A DNA stretch of 64,000 bases from Polyangiales bacterium (GCA_964202905.1 CAXNJO010000010.1:94662-158661), one strand, 5' to 3'. Positions 60,038 through 63,000 are shown, counted from the stretch's first letter. Program-made: numbers and translations. The notes: generated from the letters alone by a model not told the origin.

Positions 60038-63000
60038 TCAAAGCGGGACGAGGCCGCTGTTGCCCGAGGGGAGTCCGCTGCTGGCCGGGGCCATGAGGTC
60101 GACCTGGGCCGCCGGCTGGCTCGCGACCCACGAGCTCGCGTCGATCGTCGCCTTGGCGACGCCAAAGGCGAACCATCCGACGGTCCCCGCGCTGATGAGC
60201 GCGGTTCCAGCGTGCACCAGCAGGGGTGAGAGGACGTCGACCATCCCGAAGGAGAGGACGGACAGCGCAATACCACCGGCGATGGCTCCCCCGATCAGGG
60301 TGTATTTGAGCGCCTTGCCCAGCGTGGACTTGCCCAAGCGGTTCCAGCCTCTGCCGATCTTCCCTCCGATGTAGCGGCCGGCCCGGGTGTTCTTGATCGC
60401 GGCCGTGATCGCCTTGCCGGCCACCTGGCTGACGACGCTCCCGATGACGCCCGCCACCAAGCCAACGGGTCCTCCCGCGAGGAAACCGATGGCCGCGGCA
60501 GCGAGGACCTTGCCCACAGCCATTGTCGTGGGGTGCTTGAGGAAGGCCTTCGCGTTGTCCTTGGTGAACCCTGCCTTGAAGCGCTGCCACTTCGTGGGAG
60601 GTACGGGGCGGTCACTCTTGACGTAGCGGTCCGAGCGCTGGCGCGTGACTTTCGGCCGCCCGCTGGCCGCTTCCCCGGCGAGCCCGAGCGGATCGATGCT
60701 GTTGCCGTAGTGGTTGGCGACGTACGCATAGCTGCTCGTCGACTCGCCGAGCCGCTCGACGCTCTCGGCGTCCACGATGTCGAACGCGGGGTCCGCGGAG
60801 GTCCAGCGCCCGATCTGCGTGTCGAGCTGGCGGTACTGGAAGGCGAGCAAGCCCGTGCTCTCGTCGGCCTCCTGACCCGTGTAGCCGTGCTCGTCCACGA
60901 AGCCGCTCTGGTGACGGAGCTCGCCGCTCGGGTAGTAGAGGCGCTCGCCGAGGACCGTGCCGTCCGCGGAGGTCGCCAGAGTCGTCGATCCGAGGTGGTC
61001 GTGATGCAGGAACGCGACATCGCCGCCGTCGAGGGCGAGCAAGCGGCGCGCGGCCCCCGAGAGCAGCCACATCGCCTTCGACGCGCCCGGCGCGCCATCC
61101 ACGATCCCGGCCTCGGTCGCGACCGACACCCACGCGTCCGCGGCGTTGATCTCGTCGTCGCCGGCGTCGAGCGGAGCGACGTCGGTGAGCACGTCGGTTT
61201 GCATCGACACGCTGCGCAAGCGCCCGAGACGCAAGTTCTGCAGGCGCGGATGGAGGTTCACCACGCCGTCCCGCACCTCGACCTCGGAGTCCACGTAGAA
61301 CGTGAGGCTGCCGTTCTCCTCGCGGGCGACGCGCCGGGCACCGAGCGCGTAGAAGAACTGCCCGCTCGAACCACCGTCGCCCGTCGCCGACACGAGACGG
61401 CCCTCGTGATCGTACGAGAGGGAGGTCGTCCCACGTCGCGTCATCCGCCCGGCCGCGTCGTACTCGTACTGCCTGTCGCCCGCCCGGCGCACCGCGTTCG
61501 GGTGCACTGAGTCGTACTCGAGGGCGCCGACGTGCGCGCGGCTGCGCGCGCCGAGGCTCGACTCCACGCTGCGCACGCGGTCGCCGACGTCGTACGTGTA
61601 GGAGAGCGTCTCTTCCTCGGCCGACGCCTCGCCGAAGGTCGCGGCACGCAGGCGGTAGAGCGCGTCGTAGGAGAAGCGCGCGGTCAGCGAAGGCCGAGTC
61701 GCCGCGCCCTCGGAGGTGTCCGTCATCGTGAGCAGGTTGCCGACACGGTCGCGCGTCATCGACGCGCCCTGAAGGACGCGGGACCCGAGGCGCGTCTCCA
61801 TCGCCTCGAGCCGGCCTGCGTCGTCGAAGCTCCGCTCGCCGCGCGTCCCGTTCGCGTAGAAGAGCGTCGCGATGCGCCCCTGCTCGTCGTAGCCGACGTC
61901 GTCGAGCACACCGGAGATCCCCGTGGGGCGCGAGCCTTGGTCGTACGTGCGATCCGTCGAGAGGCCACCCGGATGGACGGTGCGCGTCAGCCGGCCGATG
62001 GCGTCGAAGGTCCGCTGGGTCACGAAGCGCGTCCCGGCGAGGGTGCGCGCCTCGAAGACCTCGTTTCCGCGCGCGTCGTAGCCGAGCTCGTCACGTCCCG
62101 TCCCGAGCTCGCCGAGCGGGTAGCGCATGCCCACCTGACGCCGCGCGCCGTTCGTGCAGGTGCTGCAGTCGGGGTCCTCGTCGTAGAGGACCTCGGTGCG
62201 CGTCGCGGCCTCGTCGGCCTCGTCCCACTGCGCCACCAACCGACCGATTCCGTCGTACGCACCGACGGTCACGGCGCCACGAGCGTCCCTGCGCTGCAGG
62301 ACGTTCCCCGAACCGTCGTGGGTGTAGCTGATCATCCCACGGTCCGGATCGAGCACGCTCACCACGCGGCCGGCGAGATCGTAGGACTGAGCATGCTCGA
62401 CCCCATCGGGGGCGCGCGTCGACACGAGGCGACCGAGGGAGTCGTAAGCGAGGGTGGTCGTGGCGACCATCCCGCCGCCGAGGTCACGCGTCGCCGCGAC
62501 GAGGCGATCGAGACCATCGTACGTCTCGATGAGCGGCGTGTCCGCGGACGCCCCGGACGGGTCGTTGTCCTCGCCGTCGTAGCGCGCGACGCGGAGCGGT
62601 CCGTACTCCACCCGGAGCGTCGTCCGCTCACCGGCGACGCTGTCCGTGCTCTCGGTGCTCTCGGTGGCCCGGCCGAGCGCGTCGTAGGTGAACGTCTCGG
62701 AGGGGATGCTCGTCGGCGCGGTCATGTCGCAGGCGCCGCTCGTGCTGACGAACTCCTCGTAGGCCCGCACGGGCTTGCCACGACGGTTCAGGACCTCGAA
62801 GCCGGACACCTGATAGCTGCCGTCGGCGATCCGCGTGCGGGTCTGCACTTCGCGCCCCTGACCGTCGAGGCACTGCACCTCCTCGAGGTCGAGCGGCCCG
62901 CCCGTGACGCTGCGCGAGCGGGCGACGACACGCGTCACCGGCGAGGCCGTCTCGTAGGTGAACTCCTCCGAGGGGGTCGCCTCGGCGTCACCCGGCATCA

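Follow-up and report, generated by a model that had tools for sequence, protein, structure and literature searches.

Polymorphic toxins of the TcdB/TcaC type, as described by Zhang et al. 2012 (PMC3482391), combine a signal peptide, an SpvB domain, an integrin-like propeller and RHS repeats with a variable C-terminal domain. The RHS gene that we describe here, from a Polyangiales bacterium, shares all of these features with them but differs in carrying a dockerin-like insertion, in being accompanied by a dedicated lipoprotein with a predicted cohesin fold, and in having no immunity gene after its tail; the words “dockerin” and “cohesin” do not occur in the text of PMC3482391, supplements aside. 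The locus also resembles the Tc (ABC) toxins, made up of TcA and TcB-TcC, in encoding a B-C fusion cage with an adjoining large helical protein whose last residues are like those of a TcB-binding domain. Unlike in the Tc toxins, all parts here have Sec or lipoprotein signals, and the A-like protein is without PF18276 and also occurs without this RHS gene. Bacterial teneurin-like proteins, as presented in PMC13018210, are likewise surface-displayed RHS toxins that are lipoprotein-anchored in Myxococcota; their anchor is their own N-terminus, whereas here it would be a separate lipoprotein.

The proposed pairing itself is closest to the cellulosomal and non-cellulosomal cohesin-dockerin pairs (C. 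thermocellum type I; C. perfringens NagJ-NagH, 2ozn; the A. fulgidus cohesin, 2xdh), in which a cell-anchored cohesin beta-sandwich is matched with a partner bearing two helices along with a calcium loop. The flat 8-3-6-5 sheet is where solved cohesins take up dockerin helices 1 and 3, and a conserved flat face of that type may be a further point of likeness (PMC5429695, as far as its text is available). In contrast to these known pairs, the module here is internal in an RHS shell rather than terminal and has one calcium loop instead of two repeats, the cohesin-fold domain has eight strands and a disulfide-type cysteine pair, neither part passes Pfam, and the pair is a predicted one.

The window, i.e., the whole stretch of DNA that was analysed, covers 64,000 nt (G000:C10:94662-158661). 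The RHS gene lies on the minus strand and runs beyond the window end to G000:C10:160911, and the full length of 2070 aa was read from the genome. By domain search, its YD-repeat shell and RHS core (TcB-TcC fusion) occupy 60683-64000 of the window, and on the N-terminal side follow FG-GAP propeller, SpvB and TcdB_midN domains and a signal peptide, the last called by eye from the sequence. Both Asp motifs of the core (RWTSADP and IDPLG) are kept, and with the signal peptide, SpvB domain, propeller, RHS repeats and core all present the protein is of the TcdB/TcaC type. The variable C-terminal cargo of 214 aa is encoded at 60038-60682. Three lipoprotein genes lie downstream in the same orientation: one for 158 aa (59481-59957), one for 1947 aa with a Cys-rich N-terminus and a long helical C-terminal half (53634-59477), and one for a Cys-rich lipoprotein that is conserved after the 1947-aa gene (49354-53634). 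The RHS gene, the 158-aa lipoprotein gene and the 1947-aa gene are each single-copy in their own genome.

The 3' part of the Cys-rich lipoprotein gene looks frameshifted in the present assembly: the protein matches a close orthologue (L062, with a 1250-aa frame) only over residues 1-1173, after which the frame extends, apparently out of frame, to 1426 aa, so that a frameshift or assembly error at the 3' end is likely. Upstream of the RHS gene and outside the window, the same strand encodes a protein of 770 aa that contains 11 DUF4215 repeats and matches P_proprotein weakly (L001:6543-8855, equal to G000:C10:161241-163553); this protein was not found beside the homologous RHS genes examined. 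The GC content falls from 0.74-0.80 before window position 50000 to 0.64-0.74 over the operon (50000-64000), and the same operon is present in a genome whose GC at third positions is near 0.3 (L035), which together are consistent with horizontal spread.

The initial annotation had placed an interruption of the YD pattern just before the RHS core, and this was borne out. The insertion comprises 63 aa, encoded on the minus strand at about 61022-61210, and sits between two strands just before the core, in place of a short turn; GDDEINAADA (starting at window position 61162) and HHDHLGS (starting at 61006) both lie in the RHS frame, as had been quoted. Between flanking anchors there are 90 residues here compared with 38 in a solved teneurin-like RHS protein, and a plain SpvB-RHS protein (L040) has only a short turn at the site, so we regard the segment as a true insertion. 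Nor is it a chance occurrence, since it recurs in 48 loci of 35 genomes (genomes being counted by contig prefix). These loci came from a contig scan with the pattern D[GD]xI[TNR][AS][AG]DAW, which returned 98 stretches, 49 of them confirmed; a pattern-free search of 301 genomes of the class also gave the same module among its best matches. The closest named relatives are Sandaracinaceae or Sandaracinus, and most others are Myxococcota or Deltaproteobacteria. Absence of the insertion from homologues had been named as grounds for dropping the idea, and the reverse was found: in a 51-row alignment, the first Asp of the loop (D40) is kept in 50/51 sequences, D48 in 51/51, I51 in 50/51, D55 in 51/51, W57 in 50/51, L80 in 50/51 and L88 in 48/51, D40, L80 and L88 lie outside the search pattern, and conservation at D48, I51, D55, A56 and W57 in part reflects selection by it.

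Each insertion has a single D..DGxI[TN]xxD loop and two long helices. The loop is of an expanded calcium type, D-x-A-P-(xn)-DG-x-I-[TN]-A-[AG]-D, in most members and takes the canonical 12-residue form in six homologues (L063, L074, L089, L094, L103 and L112). A structural model built from 50 rows (pLDDT 90.6) consists of a strand, a short helix, a long loop, a helix, a linker, a helix and a strand. The Asp residues at n, n+4 and n+11 followed by a predicted helix are those of a dockerin loop, and calcium binding is putative. Loops of the Dx[DN]xDG kind are found in many unrelated folds, which is one reason to consider that the insertion is a stand-alone calcium knob, serving stability, calcium sensing or contact with a target membrane, while the lipoprotein binds something else. 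The insertion is also without half of a dockerin's calcium sites: no second calcium repeat is present anywhere in the 51-sequence alignment, where a two-repeat dockerin would have one.

We therefore compared the insertion with dockerins by several routes, and the resemblance claimed by the initial annotation held up in part. Among 48,161 solved chains, the best structural match to the model was the dockerin 2ccl_B (Z 3.3, rmsd 2.9 A, 48 residues aligned, the whole dockerin covered), and dockerin chains, identified by titles and lengths, made up 7 of the top 17 rows (ranks 1, 2, 4, 7, 11, 14 and 17). The Z scores of the insertion are low (2.5-3.3) and within the range of unrelated helical rows interleaved with the dockerins, so the support lies in the enrichment of dockerins among the top rows and not in the score. 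Against a profile of 30 Pfam-positive dockerins from the same phylum, the insertion scored 20.9 over 21 columns (E 8e-4), compared with 8.4 +/- 1.8 and a maximum of 14.1 in 60 column shuffles, and the same D-x-[AS]-P expanded loop is seen in 3/30 of these dockerins (L201, L202 and L206). The profile search suggested with the original idea gave little: Pfam Dockerin_1 matched 1/51 members, at E 0.065, and nothing above cut-off in the own genome. Foldseek with the insertion model returned five weak unrelated rows and no dockerin, and a sequence-profile search of solved structures with the insertion alignment gave no match. What stands, then, is one calcium loop, two helices and a weak likeness in predicted shape and in profile; the second repeat and the Pfam match do not, and for that reason we call the insertion dockerin-like and not a member of the family.

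The 158-aa ORF, whose C-terminal end reads as originally quoted, has a lipobox with Cys18 (at least 90% conserved), a Cys-rich spacer and, at residues 58-158 (59484-59786, minus strand), a C-terminal domain with invariant Cys74 and Cys141 that is predicted to have a cohesin fold. In the model (pLDDT 84.5), this domain is superposable on solved cohesins as a jelly-roll beta-sandwich. Foldseek ranked cohesins at positions 1-5 (best E 1.2e-3), and when Foldseek's top 991 chains were re-aligned the first 36 rows were all cohesin entries, headed by 2jh2 (Z 10.7) and 2w1n (Z 10.6, rmsd 2.0 A over 95 residues); cohesin-domain proteins among the Atlas models matched at TM 0.78-0.82. The suggestion that the small lipoprotein is cohesin-like is thus upheld at the level of the predicted fold. 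Cohesins have nine strands, and the domain here has eight; in most solved cohesins the matched region starts near residue 14-25, and strand 1 thus seems to be absent. By sequence, Pfam Cohesin matched 0/40 members at E up to 10 and nothing in the own genome, the lipoprotein core scored 14.4 against a profile of 6 Pfam cohesins, which is not above the shuffle maximum of 16.9, and a sequence-profile search of solved structures with the lipoprotein retrieved one irrelevant row only.

The lipoprotein family comprises 481 representatives at E up to 1e-10, under a profile that includes the Cys-rich spacer, and a lipobox-like motif is present in 114 of the 145 sequences with a full start. Across 179 sequences, conservation at outer positions, with small or acidic side chains, falls on residues 73 (A/S/G), 75 (E/D, 95%), 77 (L/V), 106 (A) and 108 (S/A), with Arg72 at 98%. 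The outer positions of the sheet equivalent to 8-3-6-5 average 1.78 bits against 0.83 on the other sheet, where the faces were assigned by residue alternation rather than from coordinates and the first value drops to about 1.5 without the misassigned Cys141. Stand-alone proteins of 95-98 aa, commonest in Gemmatimonadota, have an Atlas feature score of 0.92 to the cohesin-fold domain and are possibly a wider mini-cohesin family.

The distribution of the two parts strongly favours a pair. The cohesin-fold family is present in 34 of the 35 insertion-bearing genomes and in 13 of 401 genomes of the class, with the proviso that such counts include incomplete genomes and close kin and are not independent. 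In 22 of the 48 loci (21 genomes), the cohesin gene lies inside the locus, and these in-locus genes helped to build the search profile; when the remaining 14 insertion-bearing genomes were searched whole, 13 had a family member at E 7.4e-10 or better, the exception being G539, which has the insertion and no cohesin match. Of the 401 class genomes, 11 have the insertion and 13 the cohesin family, with 10 having both. Here G121 has just an insertion fragment at a contig end and no cohesin match, and the three cohesin-only genomes comprise one with an RHS protein bearing a shorter loop form (G332), one whose RHS gene is cut by the contig start and keeps the last helix (G166), and one in which no RHS match was found (G113). 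The 1947-aa gene family provides a comparison within the operon: it occurs in 34/401 class genomes, 21 of them with close homologues, and 10 of these 21 have no cohesin gene. An RHS search of nine of those ten found no match at 1e-10 in eight, and in five of those genomes the contiguous upstream DNA contains neither an RHS gene nor a cohesin gene. The cohesin gene thus follows the insertion-bearing RHS gene and not the large gene.

Members of an operon are inherited together even when their products do not bind, and pairwise identities over 21 loci tracked the cohesin with the insertion (rho 0.44) no more closely than with the RHS shell (0.51), and not with the tail (0.07), so that they give no sign of cohesin-insertion co-evolution beyond shared ancestry. 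This absence of extra co-variation suits a stand-alone calcium knob, as does the effector Tse5, whose helical protrusion at a similar distance from its cleavage site has been modelled as touching membranes (PMC10684867, from the portion available). Set against that reading, the insertion has no hydrophobic character (hydropathy at most 0.8 over 19 residues), the large and Cys-rich genes occur without a cohesin gene and are poor alternative partners for it, and it would be an unlikely coincidence for neighbouring genes to encode a cohesin fold and a module shaped like a dockerin. We consider an independent knob unlikely for these reasons. The view that the insertion and the cohesin domain bind each other in some way, which draws on co-inheritance, on surface conservation and on the resemblance of two folds, each independent of the other, is in our judgement quite probable as a prediction, and a snap-fastener between the two is likely given that the dockerin-resembling knob is almost always inherited with the cohesin-fold lipoprotein.

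A small gene directly downstream of a toxin tail is in the usual place of an immunity gene (10.1101/2024.02.26.582050, as consulted in part), and the 158-aa lipoprotein gene is in just this position here. The tails following the DPxG motif speak otherwise. In 21 loci they are 101-224 aa long and unrelated (mean identity 0.21), as expected of a variable C-terminal domain, whereas the lipoproteins of the same loci form one family (0.34) with the above correlation of 0.07 to the tail, and the lipoprotein gene is upstream of the RHS gene in 5/22 loci. The lipoprotein follows the RHS protein and not its variable tail; a tail-specific immunity role was therefore rejected, and we regard the idea as highly improbable.

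As for the cargoes themselves, the own tail of 214 aa is Gly/Ala-rich with two hydrophobic segments, matched no family in a Pfam search, and is a predicted membrane-active toxin. One of ten tails scanned matched Peptidase_C58 (L088:5806-6381, E 7e-9). Members of this family are known among effectors that act on eukaryotes, a hint that protists or other eukaryotes may be the target of some cargoes. In L059, L070, L075, L084, L092, L095, L097-L100 and L103, full-length RHS genes with differing tails stand in tandem and share a single cohesin gene or operon; the scan gave six RHS loci for G536, as against four cohesin-family genes. Some RHS copies are broken by stops or frame changes yet keep the insertion or the core (L090, L099, L100, L057 and L171), which may reflect degeneration or assembly error.

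The 1947-aa lipoprotein is likely a distant Tc A-like, i.e., TcB-binding, subunit, with weak support. The Atlas feature score of its C-terminal half to a TcA_TcB_BD cluster is 0.88, its last 36 columns score 37 against 16 TcA-family C-termini, compared with 17 +/- 3 in 15 shuffles (E 0.0035), and distant homologues of the gene stand directly before SpvB-RHS genes in L168, L170, L171 and L172. PF18276, the TcB-binding domain, found no match in 18 members of the family or in the own locus, and a sequence-profile comparison with solved structures gave coiled-coil noise only. This, together with its presence without this RHS gene, is why we hold the A-subunit identity to be likely and put it no higher. 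The large and the Cys-rich lipoprotein genes are also found as a pair, with neither RHS nor cohesin genes, in several genomes (G028, G056, G134, G299 and others; loci L155, L156, L157, L159 and L161). A cohesin partner in either of them was considered and is disfavoured, as both are found together where there is no cohesin gene.

The site just before the core is used by other RHS proteins as well. Four related ones (L012, L168, L171 and L172) have a hydrophobic insert at the same position, with a maximum 19-residue hydropathy of 1.7-2.2 as against 0.8 in the dockerin-like insertion, and all four inserts end in a lipobox-like Cys motif; a fifth insert, in L014, is similar as judged by eye. The inserts, in L168:9094-14571, L171:2121-5288, L172:9933-16067, L012 and L014, are one or two hydrophobic helices, and the SpvB-RHS genes that carry them adjoin shorter (1240-1360 aa) homologues of the large gene. 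None of the genomes with a hydrophobic insert has a cohesin match. From its sequence, the hydrophobic insert is possibly an internal membrane anchor or an internal lipidation signal. In Tse5, about 106 residues separate the end of the resolved helical surface protrusion (1031-1062) from the cleavage site (PMC10684867, in the part available), and about 114 separate the end of the insertion here from its own. By this analogy of spacing, which is not an alignment, the insertion most likely projects outward from the cage; its description in the initial annotation as lying inside the barrel is right for the sequence and most likely wrong in space. The analogy ends there, in that Tse5 is a T6SS effector and its protrusion is modelled as touching the target membrane directly. 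An outward-facing slot before the core supports a role in attachment.

We favour, at a probability of about 0.55, a cohesin-dockerin-style clip that holds a Sec-exported polymorphic toxin cage on the membrane of its producer. The RHS protein would be exported by Sec and would fold round its own self-cleaved tail. Calcium would order the loop, and the two helices of the insertion would lie against the flat, conserved surface of the cohesin domain, whose lipid anchor would keep the non-lipidated cage beside the lipid-anchored TcA-like protein. The latter would bind the cage at its SpvB/propeller end and convey the tail to a cell with which contact is made. The tether might sit on the periplasmic, the outer-surface or the vesicle face of a membrane.

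The same contacts could equally serve a transient escort, in which the cohesin lipoprotein accompanies the cage during lipoprotein sorting or passes it on to the TcA-like subunit, with the toxin being set free afterwards. Co-inheritance and fold evidence fit this equally well, G542 has one cohesin gene for three RHS loci, and the cohesin gene can be far from the RHS gene. Yet cohesin-dockerin pairs are tight assembly links, with Ka of 1e7-1e8 per M (PMC5429695, from its available text), and the hydrophobic insert at the same site of other RHS proteins looks anchor-like, so that we think a passing escort improbable, about on a par with the independent knob, and retain the stable clip as the preferred reading. 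More broadly and only tentatively, Myxococcota and related predators may have an envelope-anchored, Sec-assembled, Tc-like injection device in which the A-like subunit is lipidated, the RHS cage with its polymorphic cargo is exchangeable, and a minimal dockerin with one calcium, built into the wall of the cage, snaps onto a cohesin lipoprotein, with the pre-core turn as a general anchoring slot for either a clip or a hydrophobic insert ending in a lipobox.

Tethering by a cohesin-dockerin pair has precedent, as cohesin and dockerin domains are noted in some PT-TG toxin architectures (PMC13483458) and such a tether has been proposed for an RTX-like protein (10.64898/2026.03.19.712371), both sources having been available in part. 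Searches combining dockerin or cohesin with RHS, myxobacteria, polymorphic toxin, SpvB or Tc did not return the present arrangement in the titles and opening lines of abstracts covered, which come mostly from outside subscription journals. An internal dockerin module in an RHS shell was likewise not met in the accessible text of PMC13018210, PMC7861908, PMC10684867, PMC5429695, PMC3482391, PMC13483458, 10.1101/2024.02.26.582050 and 10.64898/2026.03.19.712371, although gene neighbourhoods of this kind may be tabulated in the supplementary files of PMC3482391 and PMC13483458. Both parts of the pairing escape Pfam, and it is therefore invisible to routine annotation. If the clip is real, it would account for the retention at the envelope of a large, non-lipidated, Sec-exported RHS toxin, which is an open point for the TcdB/TcaC type, and it would mean that a single-calcium module inserted in another fold can serve as a dockerin. 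It would also extend cohesin-dockerin assembly from enzyme scaffolds to the display of polymorphic toxins.
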